A DNA stretch of 64,000 nucleotides, taken from an uncultured Chloroflexia bacterium (GTDB lineage Bacteria > Chloroflexota > Limnocylindria > QHBO01). The stretch spans positions 96,001-160,000 of the forward strand of contig CAWFCQ010000005.1 in the NCBI GenBank assembly GCA_963814375.1, given 5' to 3'. A program made the translations under genes and the position numbers. The notes under the pieces were generated by a model. That model was given only the letters and a program-made list of their open reading frames with translations. It did no database searches and had not been told where the DNA came from. Below are positions 28,890 through 41,657 of the stretch, one piece after another (the stretch's first letter is position 1; each line of letters begins with the position of its first letter).

Positions 28890-29339
28890 TCAGTGCCCGG
28901 CGACGAGCGCCTCGGGCACGGCACAGGCGGGCTCCCCTCCCTCGTCGACCGGCTCGAGCGCCTGCGGGGCAGCCGGGATCAAGCCGATGCGGTCGATCGG
29001 CCAATAGCGATAGAGCGCGCGCCATTCGACGGCATCGGACGGCACGGCGCCGAAGGCACGCCCGTCGGTGCTGGCACTGGGGTTGTCGCCGCGGAGGCCG
29101 ATCTCGCCTCGGTCGAGGCGAGCCACGCGCTTGACGAGCTCGCGGCCCGGCGCTCGCGGATCGGCCGCCAGGACCACGTCGCCCCGCCGAGGCGGGACGC
29201 GTGCCACGAGCAGACGGTCTCCGGGGAGCAGCGTCGGGGCCATCGACCGGCCTCGAACCTCGACGACGTCCAGCCAGCGCCGGGCCGCCACGCCGACGAG
29301 GATCGCGATGAGCGCCCAGGTCACGCCGCTGGGGCGCAT
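28890..29339 (-). CDS. sodX: Ni-SOD maturation protease (S26 family)
   Basis: GRSMAPTL, GD.LL, LVKRV, GDN..STDGR.FG; directly downstream of sodN. Confidence 0.9.
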   Translation of the reverse strand: MRPSGVTWALIAILVGVAARRWLDVVEVRGRSMAPTLLPGDRLLVARVPPRRGDVVLAADPRAPGRELVKRVARLDRGEIGLRGDNPSASTDGRAFGAVPSDAVEWRALYRYWPIDRIGLIPAAPQALEPVDEGGEPACAVPEALVAGH

Positions 29340-29346
29340 CGGTCCC

Positions 29347-29778
29347 TCAGGAGGGCCGGCCGTTCACGCGAGTCTTCTCGGGACCGCCGGTCGCCTTCCA
29401 CATCTCGTCGATCGAGTCGATCATGAGCAACAGCTCCTTGGCCGCGCCCGCATCGAGCGATTGCTTCACCTTCGAGGCCTGCTTCGTCGCCTTCCAGAAG
29501 GTCTCGTGGATCCCTGGGTGCTTCTCGAGGTGCTCCGGCTTGAAGTAGTCGTGCCACAGGACGTCGAGGTGGTGCTTCACGAGCTCGGCCCGCTCCTCCT
29601 TGACGTGGATGCAGCGTGCCCTGAAGAGCGGGTCGTCGCTGGCCTCGTATTTCTCGATGATGCGGAGGCAAGACTCCGCCTCTATGCGCGCCTGCTCCGG
29701 GTCGTAGACGCCGCACGGAATATCGCAGTGCGCGTCGACGATGCGGGTGGGGCGCAGGATGGTGCGCAGGGAAAGCAT
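29347..29778 (-). CDS. sodN: Nickel superoxide dismutase
   Basis: Leader, then Ni-hook AHCDIPCGVYDP; VLWHDYFKP; GAGAGGAG RBS. Confidence 0.96.
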   Translation of the reverse strand: MLSLRTILRPTRIVDAHCDIPCGVYDPEQARIEAESCLRIIEKYEASDDPLFRARCIHVKEERAELVKHHLDVLWHDYFKPEHLEKHPGIHETFWKATKQASKVKQSLDAGAAKELLLMIDSIDEMWKATGGPEKTRVNGRPS

Positions 29779-29867
29779 CGGTCTCCTCTCAAGTGAGCGT
29801 TCGCTTGGTTGGCGTGGGTTCATCCTAAGCCTGTGCAAGCCGCGCGCCTGCGGGACCCGTGGGCAGG

Positions 29868-31733: not shown

Positions 31734-32213
31734 TCATCGGGGGTCGATCTCCATCAGGGGCTGCTTGCGCTTCACGAGCGTGCCGTTCTCGACCATCACG
31801 CGCGTGATCCGGCCGGATGCATCGGACTTGATCTCGTTGAACAGCTTCATCGCCTCGATCAGCCCGACCACCTGACCAGACGCGATCTCGTCCCCCTCGT
31901 TGACATACGACCGCGCTCCGGGCGAGGGCGCCGGATACCACACGCCGGTGAGCGGAGCGCTCACGAAGCGCATGCCCGGCGCAGGCTCGCCGAACGGTGT
32001 GAGGCCGTCGCCGCCGGCGACGGGGGCGAGAGCCGGGGCGCTGGGCGCCTCGGCCGGCAGCGGGGCCGGTGCGGCCACAGGCGCCGGACGTGGGCGGGCC
32101 AGGCGCACGCGGAGATCGCCGGCCTCGAGCTCGAGCTCGTCGAGCCCGGCCTCGGCGAAGGCGGGGGCCAGCAGGTCGATCGCCGCGAGGAGGGCGTCCG
32201 GCTGATCGGTCAT
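31734..32213 (-). CDS. accB: Biotin carboxyl carrier protein
   Basis: IEAMKLFNEI biotinylation motif; PAPSPGA thumb loop; Pro/Ala linker. Confidence 0.93.
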   Translation of the reverse strand: MTDQPDALLAAIDLLAPAFAEAGLDELELEAGDLRVRLARPRPAPVAAPAPLPAEAPSAPALAPVAGGDGLTPFGEPAPGMRFVSAPLTGVWYPAPSPGARSYVNEGDEIASGQVVGLIEAMKLFNEIKSDASGRITRVMVENGTLVKRKQPLMEIDPR

Positions 32214-33973: not shown

Positions 33974-35332
33974 CTAGCCTCCGACGAAGGCCGCCGGCCC
34001 GACGCGATCGAGGAGGTTGGTGCTGACGCGCGCGTCGAGGAACGCGTCGTTGTTGATGATGCCGCGGTGGAACGGGATGTTGGTCTTCAACCCATCCACC
34101 TCGAACTCGGCGAGCGCGCGCCGCGACCGCGCCAGCGCGATCTCCCGTGTCTCGCCCCACACGATGAGCTTGGCGAGGAGGCTGTCGTAGAAGGGCGGGA
34201 CCTCGTAGCCAGGGTAGATGTGCGTGTCGACCCGGACGCCCGGGCCGCCCGGCAGGTTGACGGAGCCGATCTCGCCGGCCTGCGGCGAGAAGTTGTCGCT
34301 CGGATCCTCGGCGTTGATCCGAAACTCGATCGCGTGCCCACGAAAGCGGATCTCGTCCTGGCGCAGGCTGAGGCGCTCGCCGGCGGCGACCCGGATCTGC
34401 TCGGCGATCAGGTCCACGCCGGTCACCATCTCGGTGACCGGGTGCTCGACCTGGATGCGGCAGTTGATCTCGATGAAGTAGAAGTTCCCGTCGGCGTCGA
34501 GCAGGAACTCGAGCGTCCCGGCGCTCTCGTAGCCGGCCGCCACGACGCTCCGGACGGCGAGGTCGCGAAGTCGCTCGCGGGCGGCGTCGTTCATCGCCGG
34601 CGACGGCCCCTCCTCGATGATCTTCTGATGCCGGCGCTGGACGCTGCAGTCCCGCTCGCCGAGATGGACCCCGCTCCCGTGCTGGTCGATCATCACCTGG
34701 ACCTCGACGTGGCGCGACTCCTCGATCCACCTCTCGAAGTAGATGCTGTCATCGCCGAAGGCGGCCTGCGCCTCCGAGCGCGCCAAGGGCAGCGAGGTCT
34801 CCATCTCGCGCGGTGAGCGAATGAGCCGCATGCCCCGACCGCCTCCTCCCGCCGACGGCTTGAGAAGGACCGGGTAGCCCGCCTCGCCGGCCTGCTCGAG
34901 CGCGTCACCCAGATCAGTGACGATCCCGCGGCTGCCCGGCACCGTGGGCAGGCCGTTCGCGGCCAGCATCCGACGCACGGCGTACTTCGACGCGAAGCGT
35001 TCGAGCACCTCCGGTCGCGGGCCGATGAAGGTGAGGTCGTGCGCCCCGCACGCCTCGGCGAAGCTCGCGTCCTCGCTCAGGAATCCGTACCCGGGATGGA
35101 CCGCGTCGCAGCCGGTGATCATCGCCGCGCTGATGACGGCTGGCTGGTTGAGATAGCTCTTGCGCGCCTCGGCAGGCCCGATGCAGATCGCCTCATCAGC
35201 CAGTCGCACTGCCAGTGACTCGCGGTCGGCCTCGCTGAAGGCGACCACCGCCGGCAGGCCGAGGTCGCGGCAGGCGCGAAGGATGCGCACGGCGATCTCG
35301 CCACGGTTGGCGATGAGAATCTTGGTGACCAC
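33974..35332 (-). CDS. accC: Biotin carboxylase
   Basis: [44 protein letters not shown]. Confidence 0.95.
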
Positions 35333-35334
35333 GG

Positions 35335-36282
35335 TCAGACCGCGACCCCGGCGCGCTGGCGCAGGAGCCCGGCTGTTGCCTCGAGGCTCCGAGCATCGGT
35401 CACCGTGGCTGTTCCGGCGTCGGGCGCGATGCGCTTCACCATCCCGACCAATGCCGCGCCGGTGCCGCACTCGATGAGGAGGTCGACCCCGTCGTCGACC
35501 ATGCGCCGCACGCAGGCCACCCACTCGACGGGCGAGCGCACCTGCTCGGCAAGGAGCGAGCGGATCCGACCGACGTCGGTGAGCGGCTCGGCGGTGACGT
35601 TGCTCATGACCGCGATGCGTGGGGCGTGCCACTCCTCCGCCTCGAAGGCGTCCGACAGCGCGTCGGCGACGCCGCTCATGAGCGGCGAGTGGAAGGCGCC
35701 CGAGACGGGGAGCCTGAGGACGCGCTTCGCACCGGCCGCGCGCATCGGCTCCTCGGCGGCGAGGAGCGCATCAGGGGCGCCGGAGATGACGACCTGGCCG
35801 GGAGCGTTGTCGTTGGCGACCACGAGCTCGGTGGGGCGGGCCACGGAGTCGACCACCGATTGGACGGCGTGGCGCTCCATGCCGATGACCGCCGCCATGC
35901 CGCCGCCGCCGTCGGCCTCGGCCATCAGCTCGGCGCGGCGCTGAACGAGGCGCAGCGCAGCGGGCAGCTCCAGCACGCCGGCGGCCACGAGCGCCGCGTA
36001 CTCGCCGACCGAGTGCCCGGCCACGATGGAGGGCCGCACCTCGACCGCTTCCTCGAGCGCGCGCAACGCCGCGACCGACGTCGCGAGAAGGCATGGCTGC
36101 GTCTGGCGCGTGTCGTTCAGCCGATCCTCCGGACCGTCCCAGCAGGCCGAGGACACCGACCAGCCGAGGGCGGCATCCGCCTCGTCGAAGGCCGAGCGCG
36201 CCGCCGGGGAGCGCTGGGCGAGCTCGCGGCCCATCCCGATCGCCTGTGAGCCCTGCGGGCTGAAGAGCAGCGCGAGGCTCAT
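35335..36282 (-). CDS. fabD: Malonyl-CoA:ACP transacylase
   Basis: QGSQ, TQP, GHSVGEY, VSGAFHS. Confidence 0.93.
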   Translation of the reverse strand: MSLALLFSPQGSQAIGMGRELAQRSPAARSAFDEADAALGWSVSSACWDGPEDRLNDTRQTQPCLLATSVAALRALEEAVEVRPSIVAGHSVGEYAALVAAGVLELPAALRLVQRRAELMAEADGGGGMAAVIGMERHAVQSVVDSVARPTELVVANDNAPGQVVISGAPDALLAAEEPMRAAGAKRVLRLPVSGAFHSPLMSGVADALSDAFEAEEWHAPRIAVMSNVTAEPLTDVGRIRSLLAEQVRSPVEWVACVRRMVDDGVDLLIECGTGAALVGMVKRIAPDAGTATVTDARSLEATAGLLRQRAGVAV

Positions 36283-36752
36283 CTCGGCGCCTCCGGTGGC
36301 TCGAGCTCGAGGACGACCTGGCCGTACTCGACCGCCTCGCCGCTCTCGGCCACGAGGTGGAGGACGGTGCCGGCGCGTGGCGCGCGCACGTCGTGGCGGA
36401 CGCCGAGCATCTCGATGTGGCCGAGCGCATCGCCCTTGCCGACCGTGAGTCCGGGGCCGAGGCCCTCGGCGTAGACGAAGAACCCCACCGCGGGCGAAGC
36501 GACGCCGACCGATGCGGGGGCACCCGGGGGCTGCGTCGCGGGCGCCGGCGCGGAGTCCTGCGCCACTCTCGCCGGCCCGGGTGCCGGCGCGGGCGTCATG
36601 CCACCGGAAGCCGCGCTGACGCGAAGCCGCAGGTCGCCCCGCGACACCTCGATCTCGCCCAGCCCGTGTCGGGCGAGCCGCTCGGTGAGCTCGGGCAGAA
36701 GCTCCTCGGCGGCGCGCGTGATGGCCTGGAGCGCCTCGTCGCGATCGGTCAT
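36279..36752 (-). CDS. BCCP-like protein lacking the biotinylated lysine
   Basis: [29 protein letters not shown] (in place of EAMK), GEAVEYGQ. Confidence 0.85.
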
Positions 36753-37768
36753 GCGCCTCCCTCGTTCTCGCCGTCATCGTCGGCGCTCGGCCAGATCTCG
36801 CTCCAGCGCGGGCGGCGCGGCGCGCCCGGCAGGTGAAGAATGCGCCCGATGCGACGGGTCAGCGACGGGGCCTCGGGCGCCTGCGTCGAGCCCGCCTCGG
36901 TCTCGAGATAGGCACCCGCGCTGCGCAGACGAGCGTAGCGCGTGGCGAGCAGCTCTGCCGTGTCGCGGCCCGAGAGGCCACGAAGCGCCGCGAGCAGGGC
37001 CGAGCGCACGGCCCTGGCGGTGGCGGCGTGATCCGTGTGCGCGCCCTCGCCCGGCTCGCGGATGACCGTATCGACGACTCCGAGCTCGGCCTGGTCGGCC
37101 GCCGTCATGCGCATCGCGGCCGCGGCCACCTGCGCCTCGTCGCGCGAGCGCCACAGGATCGACGAGGCGCCCTCGGGGCTGATGACCGAGTACACCGAGT
37201 TCTCGAGGGCGAGCACGGTGTCGCCAACGCCGATCGCAAGCGCTCCGCCGGAGCCTCCCTCCCCCAGAACCACCACGACGATCGGCACCTGGAGGCCCGT
37301 CATGAGCTTGATGCTCGAGGCGATCGCCTCGGCCTGGCCGCGCTCCTCGGCGGCCGGGCCCGGGAAGGCGCCAGCCGTGTCGAGGAAGGTGACGATCGGC
37401 AGGCCGAGCTTGTCGGCGAGGCGCATCAGCCGCTGCGCCTTGCGAAAGCCCTCCGGGTGAGGTGAGCCGAAGTTCCGCGCGATGTTGGAGTCGGTATCGG
37501 TCCCCTTCTGGTGGCCGATCACCATGACGGCGCGGCCTTCGAGGAGAGCGGGCCCGCCGACGATCGCCGGATCGTCACCGAACGCCCGGTCGCCGTGCAG
37601 TTCGAAGAACCCCTCGAAGATGAGGGACACCAGGTCGAGCGTGCGCGGCCGCTGCGGATGACGCGCCAGCTGGACGTGCCGCCAGGCAGACTCGATCGCC
37701 GCTCGATCCAGCGGGGAGCCGGACGGCAGTGCGGCAACGGCGGCAACCGGCTCGAGCGGCTCGGTCAT
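36749..37768 (-). CDS. accA: Acetyl-CoA carboxylase carboxyltransferase alpha
   Basis: [40 protein letters not shown]. Confidence 0.95.
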
Positions 37769-38781
37769 CGCTCATCTTCCCCCGCGTCGGCCGGGGCTCG
37801 GGACGCGGCCGGGCCACGCCCGTTGCCACCCTCGGCCTCGGCGTCGACATCGATTCCGATCGTTTCGCTCACGGCGCCGCCCAGCCGCTCGGCGAACCCG
37901 GAGAGCGCGCCGATCGGGCCCCAGGCGCGCTCCGCCTCTTCGGCTGCGGCGTCAGCCGCGCGCGGCACGGGGAGGAGCCTGAGCAGCCGGCCCAGGGTGG
38001 CTCGCAGCTCGGGCCGGGGCACGATGGCATCGACGAATCCGTGAGCCAGCAGGAACTCCGCGGTCTGGAAGCCCTCCGGCATCTCCTCGCCGACCGTGTC
38101 GGACGCGACCCGGGCGCCAGCGAAGCCGATGAGCGCCTTCGGCTCGGCGAGCACGACGTCGCCCAGGCTCGCGAAGCTGGCGAGGACGCCGCCGGTTGTC
38201 GGATCGGTGAGCACGGCGATGAACGGGACACCCGCATGGTCGAGCCGGACGAGGGGAGCTGTCGTCTTCGAGAGCTGCATCAGCGACAGCGTCCCCTCCT
38301 GCATGCGCGCGCCCCCCGAGGCGCTGACCACGATGGCGGGGATCCGCTCGGCGAGCGCCGTCTCGAAGCAGCGCGCCAGCTTCTCACCCACCACGCTTCC
38401 CATGCTGCCGCCCATGAAGCGGAAGTCGAAGATGCCGATGGCGACCCGCCTGCCCTCGATCTGGCCAACCCCCCAGACCACGGCGTCTCGCAGGCCGGTC
38501 TTGATGCGCGCGGCCTCCAGACGGTCCGAATACGGCTGCGCATCGTGGAAGCCGAGACGGTCCACCGACTCCAGCCCTCCATCACGCTCCTGGAAGGTGC
38601 CCGGGTCGAGCAGCATGTCGATCCGCTCGCCGACCGACATGCGGAAGTGGTGGCCGCACGAGGGGCAGAGGCGCAGTCCGCGCTCGAGCTGCCGGCTGAA
38701 GACCTGCGCGTCGCAGCTTGGGCACTTCGTCCAGGCGTCGCTCGGGGCCGCGCGGCGGCTGAACGGAAACTTGATCGGCAA
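37765..38781 (-). CDS. accD: Acetyl-CoA carboxylase carboxyltransferase beta (TTG start)
   Basis: [40 protein letters not shown]. Confidence 0.95.
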
Positions 38782-38795
38782 TCTCGTTCCCCCGC

Positions 38796-39152
38796 CTACC
38801 GGTGCAGCAGCCGATGCGGCGCGCGGAGCCGCGCTCCGCGCCAGACGGCGAATGCCGTCACTCCCACCCCCACCGCCGATCCGACCGCTCCGGTCACAAT
38901 CAGCCGACCGGGATGCCGCAGGATCCACGGCGACGGCGAGATCGAGAGACGGGCGCCGAGACGGGCCTCGAATCGGGGCGCCACCAGGGAGGTGCCGAGC
39001 TGCTCACGCAGCCTGGCAGCCGTGGCGAGCAGCGGCCGATCAGCGTCGGTGACGCCGGCGCCTGCCGCCGCGACCGCCGGCGTGGCGCCCGCCAGCAGAT
39101 CGTCGAGGGCACGGTCGAGCCGCTCGGCACGCGTGGGACGTTGGATCATCAC
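38796..39152 (-). CDS. Small single-TM protein, putative minimal anti-sigma factor
   Basis: Helical N-terminus (LDRALDDLL..PRFEARLGARL), one TM helix, short basic tail; follows the ECF sigma. Confidence 0.55.
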   Translation of the reverse strand: MMIQRPTRAERLDRALDDLLAGATPAVAAAGAGVTDADRPLLATAARLREQLGTSLVAPRFEARLGARLSISPSPWILRHPGRLIVTGAVGSAVGVGVTAFAVWRGARLRAPHRLLHR

Positions 39153-39197: not shown

Positions 39198-39767
39198 TCA
39201 CCCCCGGCCGAGATGATCCGCGAGGTCGCGCAGGGCTCGATGCTGAAGCACGCGGACGGCTCCTTCGCTGCGGTCCATGACCGACCCGATCTCTCGAGCC
39301 GTCAGGCCGTCGACGAAGCGGAGCACGACGACCTGCCTCCGGTCCTCGGGCAGCAGGCTCAGGGCCCAGCGCAGGCGGCGTGTCTCCTCGGCCCGGCCCA
39401 CCAGGCCGGCCGGATCGACGTCGGCGATCGGCTCAGCCACTGCCTCGAGCGACGCGGCGACGTGGCGCCGCCGCGTGCGCAGGGCGTTGGCGAGCTGATT
39501 GTGGGCAATCCGAAAGAGCCAGGCGCGGAACGTCGCTCCCTCATCGCGGAAGCCGTCGATGGCGGCCAGGGCCGCGGCAAACGTTCGCTCGGTGGCGTCC
39601 TCGGCGTCGTGATGGTCGCCCAGGAGGTAGAAGCAGTACCCGTACACCCGGTCGATGTAGCGGCGGTAGAGCGGGCCGAACGCCGCTCGGTCGCGCTGTG
39701 CCGCGCGCACCGCCTCGAGGTCCGGATCGGCGGCCGCGGCGCGGCGACGTGCCGGTTCGGCGCTCAC
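39198..39767 (-). CDS. ECF RNA polymerase sigma factor
   Basis: AFGPLYRRY, DAEDATERTF, AWLFRIAHN, LPEDRRQVVVLRF, SEGAVRVLQHRAL. Confidence 0.92.
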   Translation of the reverse strand: MSAEPARRRAAAADPDLEAVRAAQRDRAAFGPLYRRYIDRVYGYCFYLLGDHHDAEDATERTFAAALAAIDGFRDEGATFRAWLFRIAHNQLANALRTRRRHVAASLEAVAEPIADVDPAGLVGRAEETRRLRWALSLLPEDRRQVVVLRFVDGLTAREIGSVMDRSEGAVRVLQHRALRDLADHLGRG

Positions 39768-40570
39768 GACGCTCCTCCGCGCTGGACCCGGACGACCTCG
39801 CCTCCGGCCAGCGCGTGGCGGCCATCCTCCGCCTCTACGACAAGGGCGCCGGTCGGATCGAGATCGACCGCTCGCCCGTGGACCGCGCCCTCCGGCGTGG
39901 CGACGGTCACGAACGCGCCGAGCGTCGAGCAGGCGTCGCGGTAACGCTCGAGCGGCGACCGTCCCGCCTCGATCCCCTCGATCTCGTCCGAGAGCGCGTC
40001 GAGCAGCGCACGCAGCAGGTCGGCGCGATCGATGGGGCGGCCGGCGAGGTCGGACAGCGAGGTCGCCCGCGCGGCGATCTCGGCGGGCATCTCCGCGCGC
40101 GGCCAGTTTACGTTGAGGCCGATCCCGACGATCGCGCCCCGGAGCCGCTCCCCCTCCGTGATCGTCTCGATGAGCAGACCACCGACCTTCCGTCCGTCGA
40201 GGCCCTCGACGTCGTTGGGCCACTTCAGCCGAACGGGAGCCGCGGCAGCGGACGCCACCGCCACGCCGAGTGCGGCACCCATGCCGAGCTGCCAGGCATC
40301 GGCCGGCGCCAGTCGGGGCCGGAGGGCGACGCTGAACGTGAGGTTGCGCCCCGCCGGCGACAGCCAGCTGCGGCCCAGCCGGCCGCGTCCGCCAGTCTGC
40401 TCCTCGGCCAGCACCACGCTGCCGTCGCCTGACGGAGCATCGAGCAGCGTGCGTGCTCGGTCGTTGGTGGACCCGATGCGGTCGTGCGCCTCGATCGCGT
40501 GGCCCACCCGCCGCATCGGCCGCACGGCCGCCTGCCACGCATGGCTGGGGGTCGCGAGAGGCTCGATCAT
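39764..40570 (-). CDS. birA: Biotin-[acetyl-CoA carboxylase] ligase without HTH (class I)
   Basis: STND, QTGGRGRLGRSW, KWPND, KVGGLLIE, GIGLNV. Confidence 0.93.
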   Translation of the reverse strand: MIEPLATPSHAWQAAVRPMRRVGHAIEAHDRIGSTNDRARTLLDAPSGDGSVVLAEEQTGGRGRLGRSWLSPAGRNLTFSVALRPRLAPADAWQLGMGAALGVAVASAAAAPVRLKWPNDVEGLDGRKVGGLLIETITEGERLRGAIVGIGLNVNWPRAEMPAEIAARATSLSDLAGRPIDRADLLRALLDALSDEIEGIEAGRSPLERYRDACSTLGAFVTVATPEGAVHGRAVDLDPTGALVVEAEDGRHALAGGEVVRVQRGGAS

Positions 40571-40637
40571 GGGGCGCAACGATACCCGCTCGCGGGCGGG
40601 CTGCCCATCGGAGCCGTGCGCTACACTCACTCGTCCC

Positions 40638-41657
40638 ATGAGCCAGACCCTTGACGCTCCGAGCGCCTCCAGCGGCCCGGTGCGCGAGCGCGTCTTCAGC
40701 GGAATCCAGCCTTCCGGAGCCTCGCACCTGGGCAATTACCTCGGTGCGCAGGTCAACTACGTGGCCATGCAGGACGAGTACGACACGATCTACGGCATCG
40801 TCGACTACCACGCCCTGACGACCGTGCACGATGGCGCCGAGCTGCGGCGGCTGACGCACGAGATGGTGCTGGACCTCCTCGCCGTCGGCCTCGACCCCGA
40901 GCGCTGCGCACTCATCCGCCAGTCCGACCTGCCGGAGCACGCCGAGCTGGCCTGGATCTTCAACACCGTGACGCCGGTGAGCTGGGCGGAGCGAACGCCG
41001 ACCTACAAGGAGAAGCGGCAGCAGGGCGTCGAGAACAGCCTGGGCCTGCTCGACTACCCGATCCTCCAGGCGGCCGACATCGTCATCTACAAGGCCAGCC
41101 GCGTGCCGGTCGGCAAGGACCAGGCCGCCCACCTCGAGCTGAGCCGTGAGGTGGTGCGCGCCTTCAACCGCCGCTACGGGCCGATCTTTCCGGAGCCGGA
41201 GCCGGTCTTCACCGATGCACCGACGGTGATGGGCATCGACGGGGCCACCAAGATGAGCAAGAGCGCGAACAACACCATCCCGATCTTCGCCGAGCCAGAC
41301 GAGATCCGGCGCCTCGTCATGAGCATGGTCACCGACCCGCTGCGCATCAAGCGAACCGATCCCGGCCGGCCGGAGATCTGCAACGTGTGCCAGCTCCACC
41401 GGTTCTTCGGTGAGGACTACCTCCAGATCCACGACGGCGAACGAACCGCGCGCACCGGCTGCGTCGAGACCAAGCAGCTCCTTGCGGAGCGGATCATCGA
41501 GCACTTCCGGCCGATGCGCGAGAAGCGGATGCGCCTCGCGTCGGAGCCGAACGTGGTCGAGCAGACTCTCGCCGCGGGCGTCGCGAAGGTGCGGCCGATC
41601 CTCGATGCCACGATGGCCGAGGTGCGCGCGGCGATCGGCATCGGGCCGGTGGCGTGA
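40638..41657 (+). CDS. trpS: Tryptophan-tRNA ligase
   Basis: FSGIQPSG, HLGN, YPILQAADI, VPVGKDQ, KMSKS. Confidence 0.96.
   Translation: MSQTLDAPSASSGPVRERVFSGIQPSGASHLGNYLGAQVNYVAMQDEYDTIYGIVDYHALTTVHDGAELRRLTHEMVLDLLAVGLDPERCALIRQSDLPEHAELAWIFNTVTPVSWAERTPTYKEKRQQGVENSLGLLDYPILQAADIVIYKASRVPVGKDQAAHLELSREVVRAFNRRYGPIFPEPEPVFTDAPTVMGIDGATKMSKSANNTIPIFAEPDEIRRLVMSMVTDPLRIKRTDPGRPEICNVCQLHRFFGEDYLQIHDGERTARTGCVETKQLLAERIIEHFRPMREKRMRLASEPNVVEQTLAAGVAKVRPILDATMAEVRAAIGIGPVA

Follow-up and report, generated by a model that had tools for sequence, protein, structure and literature searches.

A lysine-less paralog of the biotin carboxyl carrier protein in the fatty-acid synthesis operon of a soil Chloroflexota bacterium and its likeness to plant BADC

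The assembly and regulation of heteromeric acetyl-CoA carboxylase (ACC) are still unsettled, even in E. coli and plant plastids. In the plant enzyme, BADC subunits serve as targets in efforts to increase seed oil; whether they inhibit ACC or hold it together is a matter of debate. BADC proteins lack the conserved lysine of BCCP, the biotin carboxyl carrier protein, and bind biotin carboxylase (BC), and the Chlamydomonas BADC is described as stoichiometric with the carboxyltransferase (CT) subunits (PMC13585458). They have been pictured as a “glue” or a “cap” for BC-BCCP and, in the abstract of the same paper, are called “unique to the plant htACCase” (PMC11926652). In that source, accessory subunits of bacterial acyl-CoA carboxylases, which are small non-catalytic proteins, are likewise credited with a “glue” function in carboxylase assembly (PMC11926652). 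Brassica orthologues of Arabidopsis BCCP-like 2 carry CYIEQLGGQFPIESDV in place of CIIEAMKLMNEIE (PMC9578262), which gives some support in print to the statement, made in a sequence-only reading of the DNA analysed here, that BADC has a glycine at the biotin site. A search of open-access papers and preprints for bacterial lysine-less BCCP paralogs found no description. Here, we describe such a paralog, which lies in one operon with the four catalytic subunits of ACC.

Operon context and protein architecture

The DNA analysed is a stretch of 64,000 nucleotides (the window) from a soil Chloroflexota bacterium, in which the paralog gene sits within a fatty-acid synthesis operon (Table 1). The neighbouring genes were assigned by Pfam to accD, accA, fabD, accC, fabZ, fabF, fabH and fabG. 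Canonical accB was found 4 kb downstream of the paralog gene and birA 3 kb upstream of it; accA, accB, accC and accD all share one operon with the paralog, in the window and likewise in the loci of the host's class. As the sequence shows, the gene has an ATGA overlap at either end: the ATG of the gene (36752-36750) shares bases with the TGA of accA (36751-36749), and its TGA (36281-36279) with the ATG of fabD (36282-36280). Through these overlaps, translational coupling joins the paralog to accA upstream and to fabD downstream. The sequence-only reading had placed a second, coupled BCCP-type gene between accA and fabD, in an operon that also has a canonical accB with the motif IEAMKLFNEI, and both statements were borne out.

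Table 1 Features of the lysine-less BCCP paralog and of its operon (window positions)
Feature	Position	Strand	Remarks
Canonical accB	31734..32213	-	PF00364 55.1 bits; IEAMKLFNEI, Lys123, thumb present
accC (biotin carboxylase)	33974..35332	-	PF00289, PF02786, PF02785; modelled partner of the paralog
fabD	35335..36282	-	PF00698, 139.6 bits; start overlaps paralog stop
Lysine-less BCCP paralog	36279..36752	-	ORF, 157 aa; frame intact
N-terminal module, residues 1-46 (helix 2-29, beta-hairpin 33-46)	36615..36752	-	AF2 pLDDT 84-93; aligns to the N-terminal segment of E. coli BCCP
Pro/Ala-rich flexible linker, residues 47-80	36513..36614	-	AF2 pLDDT 48-74; length and sequence differ among relatives
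Biotinyl-domain-like beta-sandwich, residues 81-151, thumb-less	36300..36512	-	AF2 pLDDT 97-98
Hairpin tip IEMLGV, residues 113-118	36399..36416	-	Gly117 (GGC, 36404-36402) replaces the biotinyl lysine
accA (carboxyltransferase alpha)	36749..37768	-	PF03255 ACCA, 382 bits; stop overlaps paralog start
accD (carboxyltransferase beta, zinc ribbon)	37765..38928	-	PF01039 and PF17848 Zn_ribbon_ACC; true start may be further downstream
birA-type biotin protein ligase	39764..40735	-	PF03099 and PF02237; upstream of the operon

The encoded protein has the full architecture of AccB/BCCP, with a helix and hairpin at the N-terminus, joined by a Pro/Ala linker to a biotinyl-domain fold. It matched Pfam PF00364 with 26.1 bits and the curated BCCP model TIGR00531 with 37.5 bits, below the cut-off of 115.2, where the window's own AccB scored 96. 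The best solved match of the family profile was E. coli BCCP (4hr7_B, E 2.6e-27), and the alignment runs from the N-terminal segment to the C-terminus. In a Foldseek search, the domain of the paralog matched 1bdo (TMt 0.84 at 2.1 A) and 2ejf_C (TMt 0.91 at 1.3 A). Thus, AF2, Foldseek and the profile locate both the biotinyl-domain fold and the N-terminal module and linker of a functional BCCP in the paralog. The N-terminal segment (GLGEIEV..GDLRLRV) and GEAVEYGQ, which had been noted before as retained, were both found and align with the matching segments of E. coli BCCP. A preprint on the E. coli filament predicts an alpha/beta/beta motif for the first 30 residues of BCCP and models them as a beta-barrel oligomer (PMC11160672).

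Other assignments of the domain were considered and rejected. A lipoyl carrier or GcvH was discarded, as the hairpin tip has no lysine and ACC-type BCCPs give the best matches by profile and by structure; lipoyl E2 domains matched far more weakly (E 1e-5 or worse). An HlyD/RND adaptor was also discarded, with HlyD_3 scoring 18.2 bits, below the cut-off of 22.2, and spanning 33 residues only.

Biotin site and conservation

When the paralog is aligned by BLASTP with the AccB of the window (24% identity, E 2e-7), IEMLGV comes to lie opposite IEAMKL, and by this pairing the biotinyl lysine is replaced by glycine. The family profile has the Lys-to-Gly exchange in the same column against E. coli BCCP 4hr7_B, and counts over the cluster representatives (minimum length 120 aa) gave Gly at the biotin site in 117 of 128, Lys in 6 and another residue or a gap in 5. 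Positions L116 and G117 hardly vary across the aligned family. At E<=1e-3, 3325 homologues were found; among the matches listed, the hairpin reads [VI]E[MV]LG[VI] in 86 of 120 homologues, as judged by a loose motif expression, which in the other 34 caught an upstream segment so that the hairpin was not read there. Opposite the E. coli thumb (TPSPDAKAF), the family profile has a gap of six residues and, therefore, the thumb of the paralog is absent. The earlier claims of a Lys-to-Gly replacement and of a missing thumb loop thus both hold. The thumb reportedly has an important function in E. coli BCCP, and it has been proposed as the contact of BADC on plant BCCP1 (PMC11926652). Since it is missing here, the interactions of the paralog domain may differ from those of AccB.

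The sole lysine of the paralog is K106. In relatives, the corresponding position mostly has R, A or S, and K106 was discarded as an alternative modification site; a search of the family alignment for a conserved lysine found none at any position that is invariant or nearly so. The sequence-only reading had named modification of another lysine as a possibility that would overturn it, and the unconserved K106 gives this no support. Since there is no lysine at the hairpin tip, the paralog would be unable to carry CO2 and, judging from its sequence, it cannot be biotinylated, in agreement with the earlier description of a non-biotinylatable BCCP paralog beside a canonical accB in the acc/fab operon.

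The low score against the curated BCCP model would speak for a decaying duplicate of accB, or for a mistake in sequencing or assembly by which AAG or AAA became GGC. This explanation is hardly credible, as the frame is intact, the same motif recurs in hundreds of independent assemblies, two base changes are required for Lys-to-Gly and the domain is modelled with the high pLDDT given in Table 1. The dN/dS ratios of the three closest ortholog pairs (0.05, 0.09 and 0.13) likewise argue against decay. More distant, partly saturated pairs gave 0.23-0.47; for pairs below ~70% identity, dS amounts to 0.6-1.3 and dN/dS is unreliable. By these sequence comparisons, the paralog is conserved under purifying selection. 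Two further contigs cover the glycine codon: X1 (36350-36503) is a DNA contig from another run, and X8 (36298-36422) comes from an RNA library; the latter is short and may stem from DNA carry-over. Neither has a listed difference at this codon. Each sequencing run contained at most 0.20 of the sampled words, the contigs are short and uncovered parts are uninformative. The possibility, also raised before, that reads or relatives would carry EAMK is contradicted by the glycine in the 117 representatives and by the agreement of X1 and X8 at the codon.

Distribution of lysine-less BCCP paralogs

A lysine-less copy was found in 45 of 45 sampled genomes of the host's class. At E<=1e-28, the profile A1 detected it in 43 of the 45, namely in all genomes of the families f1 (16/16), f2 (23/23) and f3 (4/4) and in none of f69 (0/2); the two f69 genomes have a more divergent lysine-less copy with the motif VQSLG, in addition to canonical accB. 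The lysine-less paralog and canonical accB were found together in 12 of the 16 class loci fetched, the remaining four being too short to extend to accB. Sister families have the gene order accD-accA-paralog-accC-fabZ-fabF-accB-fabH-fabG, in which accC directly follows the paralog. Altogether, lysine-less BCCP paralogs were seen in 20 Chloroflexota families, one Fervidibacter MAG and one unclassified MAG, where sampling outside Chloroflexota was incidental; clusters beyond Chloroflexota were not found in an Atlas search. Among 80 loci listed from genome contigs with the pattern G[EQ][AP]VE[YF]GQ, seven have a BCCP-like gene without the biotin lysine (L029, L030, L031, L034, L038, L046 and L050). 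Since this pattern also matches canonical BCCPs of many phyla, the 80 loci are no survey of other phyla.

The wider lysine-less family has G, N, Q, H, R, D, E, M or A at the biotin site. Judged by these sequences, Lys-to-Gly is not the defining mark of the bacterial family, and the K-to-G exchange, which the sequence-only reading had proposed to survey in acc operons, failed as a family hallmark. Thumb loss is not general among the lysine-less relatives either. In other lineages, the lysine-less gene is located between efp and xseA in the order pepP-efp-gene-xseA or directly upstream of accC, and canonical accB follows fabF; in several Chloroflexota families the gene lies between efp and xseA with no acc gene adjoining. 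The lysine-less BCCP is thus not special to the operon described here: across Chloroflexota, it is found mostly at the efp-accB or accB-accC position.

The position next to efp is a classical accB position, known from cyanobacterial and Bacillus gene order. Being no new context, it speaks against the view that the paralog has left ACC for another process, as a decoy for BirA or PII, as an autoregulator of acc through its N-terminal part or as a carrier modified elsewhere, a view which we regard as quite improbable. The most conserved residues, moreover, make up the modelled BC-docking surface (see below), and there is no conserved lysine able to carry a cofactor. What can be said for it is that birA is nearby, that the gene lies away from acc genes in the families mentioned and that in E. 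coli residues 1-68 of AccB repress accBC expression and GlnB sequesters AccB (PMC11160672).

In the phylogenetic tree, the lysine-less proteins part from the canonical AccB of nine phyla in one or two steps. Relaxed constraint common to these proteins, or long branches, could account for part of their grouping. It is conceivable but very doubtful that a single old lysine-less family in Chloroflexota, reaching Fervidibacterota, took the ancestral accB locus and became an obligate second carrier-like subunit of ACC, and that plant and algal BADC, which share the E-x-L-G hairpin, derive from this family or were acquired from it and not from plastid BCCP. That the paralogs extend over 20 Chloroflexota families suggests a catalytic and a structural carrier which have long divided the work between them. 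Such a division bears on the use of carrier stoichiometry in the ACC complex, for which two BCCP per BC have been suggested in E. coli (PMC11160672). In public databases, lysine-less proteins bear the names “acetyl-CoA carboxylase biotin carboxyl carrier protein”, “biotin/lipoyl-containing protein” or “hypothetical protein” and, therefore, automated metabolic reconstructions of Chloroflexota may choose the wrong gene as carrier.

Modelled docking, proposed role and comparison with known systems

Complex modelling covered AccC as the sole partner chain. The model of AccC with the paralog reached an ipSAE of 0.65, compared to 0.00 for the best of three controls; 58 of 80 solved complexes and 2 of 110 mismatched pairs attain this mark, in a calibration in which our own alignments had no part. 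The model runs share at least 54% of contacts, and the partner pLDDT is at least 66. Residues 88-91, 115-116, 118, 140 and 142-145 of the paralog form the modelled interface, including M115, L116 and V118 of the hairpin tip. Of the 16 family columns that are invariant or nearly so, six lie in this interface (V89, G90, L116, E142, G144 and Q145), and the conserved patches SPAVGF, EMLGV and AVEYGQ are predicted to be the surface which docks on AccC. As a BC-BCCP pair has already been solved (4HR7), the score may reflect likeness to 4HR7 and not retained binding.

We propose that the paralog is probably a non-catalytic subunit of ACC which works like plant BADC. It retains the three parts by which AccB joins the complex, i.e. 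the N-terminal module, the linker and the biotinyl-domain fold, of which the N-terminal helix-hairpin module would oligomerise and anchor BCCP. Made together with AccA and AccD by virtue of translational coupling, it could assemble jointly with AccC and with AccB, the true carrier, and occupy places of BCCP. As a result, either the complex would be held together or fewer catalytic carriers would reach AccC, both of which are roles reported for plant BADC; a scaffold and an inhibitor are indistinguishable from sequence. A purely negative regulator, which would compete with holo-AccB for the BC site and throttle malonyl-CoA synthesis without any structural role, is unlikely. Its modelled interface does comprise the same hairpin and C-terminal patches as in BCCP, and the first account of plant BADC was that of an inhibitor competing for BC (PMC12706156, PMC13585458), but coupling of the gene to accA is constitutive and translational, and it lies directly upstream of accC in sister families. 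An inhibitor made at a fixed ratio would regulate little unless some signal changes its affinity, and no such signal is visible. A core subunit also fits better than an accessory brake because the gene is kept in all sampled genomes of the class.

The sequence-only reading had suggested a BADC-like regulatory or structural ACC subunit. Of this, a conserved protein which is apparently non-biotinylatable and is predicted to dock on AccC has stood; the K-to-G exchange, the loss of the thumb and the operon, in turn, proved not to be distinctive. With a lysine-less BCCP and the four catalytic subunits in one operon, the compact bacterial system offers a simple and reconstitutable model of ACC.

Compared with canonical AccB (E. 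coli AccB, 4HR7, 1BDO; TIGR00531), the paralog has the same three-part architecture from end to end, the same fold and the same genomic neighbourhood, including the efp-accB or accB-accC position in relatives. Unlike AccB, it has neither the biotinyl lysine nor the thumb, stays below the TIGR00531 cut-off and is separate on the tree. Accessory subunits such as the actinobacterial epsilon subunit are likewise small non-catalytic proteins, but epsilon-type subunits are not known to be homologues of BCCP or to have the biotinyl-domain fold.

The closest likeness is to BADC, of which the paralog may be the bacterial counterpart by analogy. Both are BCCP homologues with a biotinyl-domain fold that miss the biotinyl lysine, and both exist alongside a catalytic BCCP and a four-subunit ACCase. 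From the model, the paralog is expected to bind BC as BADC does, and its gene is coupled to accA, as the Chlamydomonas protein is stoichiometric with CT (PMC13585458). In contrast to BADC, the paralog is bacterial, operon-encoded and small and has no transit peptide, and its bacterial relatives carry many different residues at the biotin site. At the motif level, and at this level only, the two are alike in sequence: IEQLGG in the Brassica BCCP-like 2 orthologues (PMC9578262) and IEMLGV in the paralog both have Lys replaced by Gly and share E-x-L-G.

Anatomy and operon of the lysine-less BCCP paralog

The ORF that the sequence-only reading had claimed as a second BCCP-like gene proved to be real when read in the sequence. 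It is a member of a minus-strand acc/fab operon whose genes were all confirmed by Pfam, and it is joined to its neighbours by two ATGA overlaps, also read in the sequence, one combining the accA stop with the ATG of the paralog and the other the paralog stop with the ATG of fabD. From their coordinates the birA-type ligase gene, accB and the paralog are at most 9 kb apart. The window's genome (2.5 Mb, 8 contigs) contains five PF00364 matches, including the paralog and accB. An ECF-type sigma factor gene and a 118-aa ORF, which matched no Pfam family, are located between the ligase gene and the operon. Directly downstream of fabG come genes for a nickel superoxide dismutase (PF09055, 135.9 bits) and then for an S26-type peptidase; the two resemble the sodN-sodX pair.

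Features of the acc/fab region and parts of the paralog protein
Feature	Position	Strand	Basis or remark
birA-type biotin protein ligase	39764-40735	-	PF03099 + PF02237; just upstream of the operon
ECF-type sigma factor	39198-39950		
118-aa ORF	38796-39152		
accD	37765-38928	-	Pfam
accA	36749-37768	-	Pfam
lysine-less BCCP paralog	36279-36752	-	ORF, 157 aa, between accA and fabD
fabD	35335-36282	-	Pfam
accC	33974-35332	-	Pfam
fabZ, then fabF	between accC and accB	-	Pfam
accB (canonical)	31734-32213	-	Pfam
fabH, then fabG	after accB	-	Pfam
nickel superoxide dismutase	29347-29850	-	PF09055
S26-type peptidase	28890-29339	-	
Paralog, N-terminal helix	residues 2-29		AlphaFold2 model
Paralog, hairpin	residues 33-46		AlphaFold2 model
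Paralog, Pro/Ala linker	residues 47-80		AlphaFold2 model, low confidence
Paralog, beta-sandwich	residues 82-151		AlphaFold2 model, pLDDT 97-98

BLASTP aligned IEMLGV of the paralog with IEAMKL of the window's AccB (24% identity, E 2e-7), confirming the replacement of the biotin Lys by Gly that had been read from the sequence. Profile A1, built from 28 members of the paralog family, had its best match among solved structures in full-length E. coli BCCP (4hr7_B, E 2.6e-27). The alignment extends from the N-terminal segment through the C-terminus, the Gly faces the biotinyl Lys of E. coli BCCP, and a 6-residue gap falls exactly at the E. coli thumb, in agreement with the loss of the thumb proposed earlier. 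The AlphaFold2 model (mean pLDDT 87) has a beta-sandwich which superposes on the BCCP biotinyl domains 1bdo (TMt 0.84) and 2ejf_C (TMt 0.91). The sole lysine, K106, is in a column that is not conserved in the family alignment; invariant or nearly invariant are E33, P71, P87, V89, G90, G107, G111, L116, G117, V122, G128, G138, V141, E142, G144 and Q145. With a curated BCCP model the paralog remained below the cut-off (37.5 bits vs 115.2). In this reading all parts by which AccB joins the enzyme are kept in the paralog, and only the biotin-carrying residue is lost.

Conservation within the class

Close relatives are labelled Candidatus Limnocylindria or Chloroflexota by their sources. Profile A1 matched 43 of the 45 sampled class genomes at E<=1e-28 with 128-197 bits, comprising all genomes of the coded families f1 (16/16), f2 (23/23) and f3 (4/4) and neither of the two of f69. 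In both genomes of f69, accA is followed by a lysine-less copy that has diverged further (VQSLG), and a canonical accB is also present. The gene order in f2 and f3 is accD-accA-paralog-accC-fabZ-fabF-accB-fabH-fabG, and in f1, the family of the window, and in f69 fabD is placed between the paralog and accC. Paralog and canonical accB were found together in 12 of 16 fetched class loci; the other four end before accB.

The Gly could reflect a sequencing error, with EAMK in relatives, or the gene could be a relic. A search at E<=1e-3 gave 3325 homologous proteins. In 86 of the 120 listed, a loose motif regex found the hairpin to be [VI]E[MV]LG[VI]; in the remaining 34 it landed on an upstream V-x-K-G-D segment, leaving the hairpin unread there. 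An exhaustive search of cluster representatives gave 2133 matches at E<=1e-3. Among 128 representatives of 120-400 aa, taken from the best 150 of these and aligned, the site is Gly in 117, Lys in 6 and another residue or a gap in 5. The three closest ortholog pairs had dN/dS values of 0.05, 0.09 and 0.13. Contigs of other sequencing runs lend weak support to the Gly codon, with no listed difference in a DNA-run contig (36350-36503) or an RNA-library contig (36298-36422); the accA/paralog junction is spanned by an identical 151-nt RNA-library contig. Since the motif is common among relatives, dN/dS is low and these contigs show no listed difference at the Gly codon, sequencing error and relic were both rejected.

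Lysine-less copies beyond the class and their origin

A further 46 places were fetched from genomes of the phylum and pooled with the earlier loci, giving 177 distinct ACC-type BCCP sequences. Lys occupies the biotin site in 111 of these and another residue in 66 (G 43, N 7, Q 5, R 4, H 2, D 2, M 1, A 1, E 1). Lysine-less copies were seen in 20 coded Chloroflexota families; the few places fetched from f4, f13, f30, f49, f52, f63 and f65 gave canonical sequences only, which does not imply absence. Gene context was viewed at five loci of f20, f25, f76 and f27 (L136, L138, L139, L140 and L141; genomes G071, G035, G113, G359 and G042). At four of them the lysine-less gene lies within pepP-efp-[gene]-xseA; at L138, one of two f20 loci, it follows pepP-efp and its other neighbour is a solute-binding-protein gene, not xseA. 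A place next to efp is classical for accB in cyanobacteria and in Bacillus. The Lys-bearing accB comes after fabF in those f20 genomes that were checked (L137, L145). The ancestral accB locus of other Chloroflexota families seems to hold the non-biotinylatable copy. Lysine-less copies directly upstream of accC, with a canonical accB elsewhere in the genome, were found in a Fervidibacter MAG (G301; L038/L146; IDALGV) and an unclassified MAG (G302; L050/L114; IEAMHL). A thumb-length insert is kept in lysine-less copies of f16, f6, f23 and some of f20; judged by these sequences, thumb loss is not general. We regard the architecture and distribution of the lysine-less paralog as solidly established.

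The low-GC cluster representative P0245 (233 aa) seems to have two tandem lysine-less biotinyl-like domains, the first with IRALGVSTKVV; in the family alignment this pattern of segments recurs in its C-terminal extension.

A tree of 133 rows was calculated from ACC-type domains, leaving out other biotinyl domains and with canonical sequences of other phyla randomly subsampled to 26. All 67 canonical rows, from Chloroflexota and eight other phyla, were on one side of a single branch (SH-aLRT 94), and therefore Lys versus non-Lys amounts to one change. After removal of the hairpin and thumb columns two changes were counted, compared to a shuffled mean of 44.5. Constraining all 66 lysine-less rows together gave a log-likelihood 21.5 above that of the free search and was not rejected (p-AU 0.83). 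These results fit one old origin of the lysine-less copies, in a tree based on 139-163 alignment columns with several long-branched rows, where a shared relaxed constraint could also group rows.

The canonical BCCP of L057, IVEAMKLMNEIE, from a record titled Candidatus Limnocylindrales, pairs with a Dormibacterota sequence (support 99), apart from Limnocylindria accB, pointing to mis-binning of the contig or to gene transfer.

AccC docking and comparison with BADC

Work on E. coli filaments of ACC predicts that the 30 N-terminal BCCP residues form an alpha/beta/beta motif, which lends itself to modelling as a beta-barrel oligomer at the centre of the tube, and reports BC as the docking partner of BCCP (PMC11160672). 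When AccC of the window and the paralog were modelled as a complex, the score was 0.65 compared to 0.00 for the best of three controls. Solved complexes attained this mark in 58 of 80 cases, mismatched pairs in 2 of 110. As the structure of the BC-BCCP pair has been solved (4HR7), the score may echo that structure. Contacts agreed between runs to at least 54% and partner pLDDT was at least 66. The modelled interface comprises paralog residues 88-91, 115-116, 118, 140 and 142-145, and includes 6 of the 16 columns that are most conserved in the family. The model shows retention of the docking surface rather than binding as such, and supports a putative binding of the paralog to AccC. Since the parts that join AccB to the enzyme are kept and docking to AccC is modelled, the paralog is most likely a non-catalytic ACC subunit that would occupy BCCP positions and act as scaffold, modulator or both, as described for plant BADC; this function we infer.

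A search of the open-access literature, which does not cover some key BADC papers, found bacterial lysine-less BCCP paralogs nowhere described, and BADC is termed "unique to the plant htACCase" in one abstract (PMC11926652). Public names of such paralogs, where given, are BCCP, biotin/lipoyl-containing protein or hypothetical protein. Gly at the BADC site, proposed in the sequence-only reading, is supported by the Brassica motif, printed as CYIEQLGGQFPIESDV vs CIIEAMKLMNEIE, a Lys-to-Gly replacement in E-x-L-G context (PMC9578262). Like BADC, the paralog lacks the lysine and coexists with a catalytic BCCP; its docking to BC is modelled, and its production is coupled to the CT subunits, here by gene coupling, similar to Chlamydomonas BADC, whose amount matches CT alpha and beta stoichiometrically (PMC13585458). 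By likeness of these features, the paralog would work like BADC.
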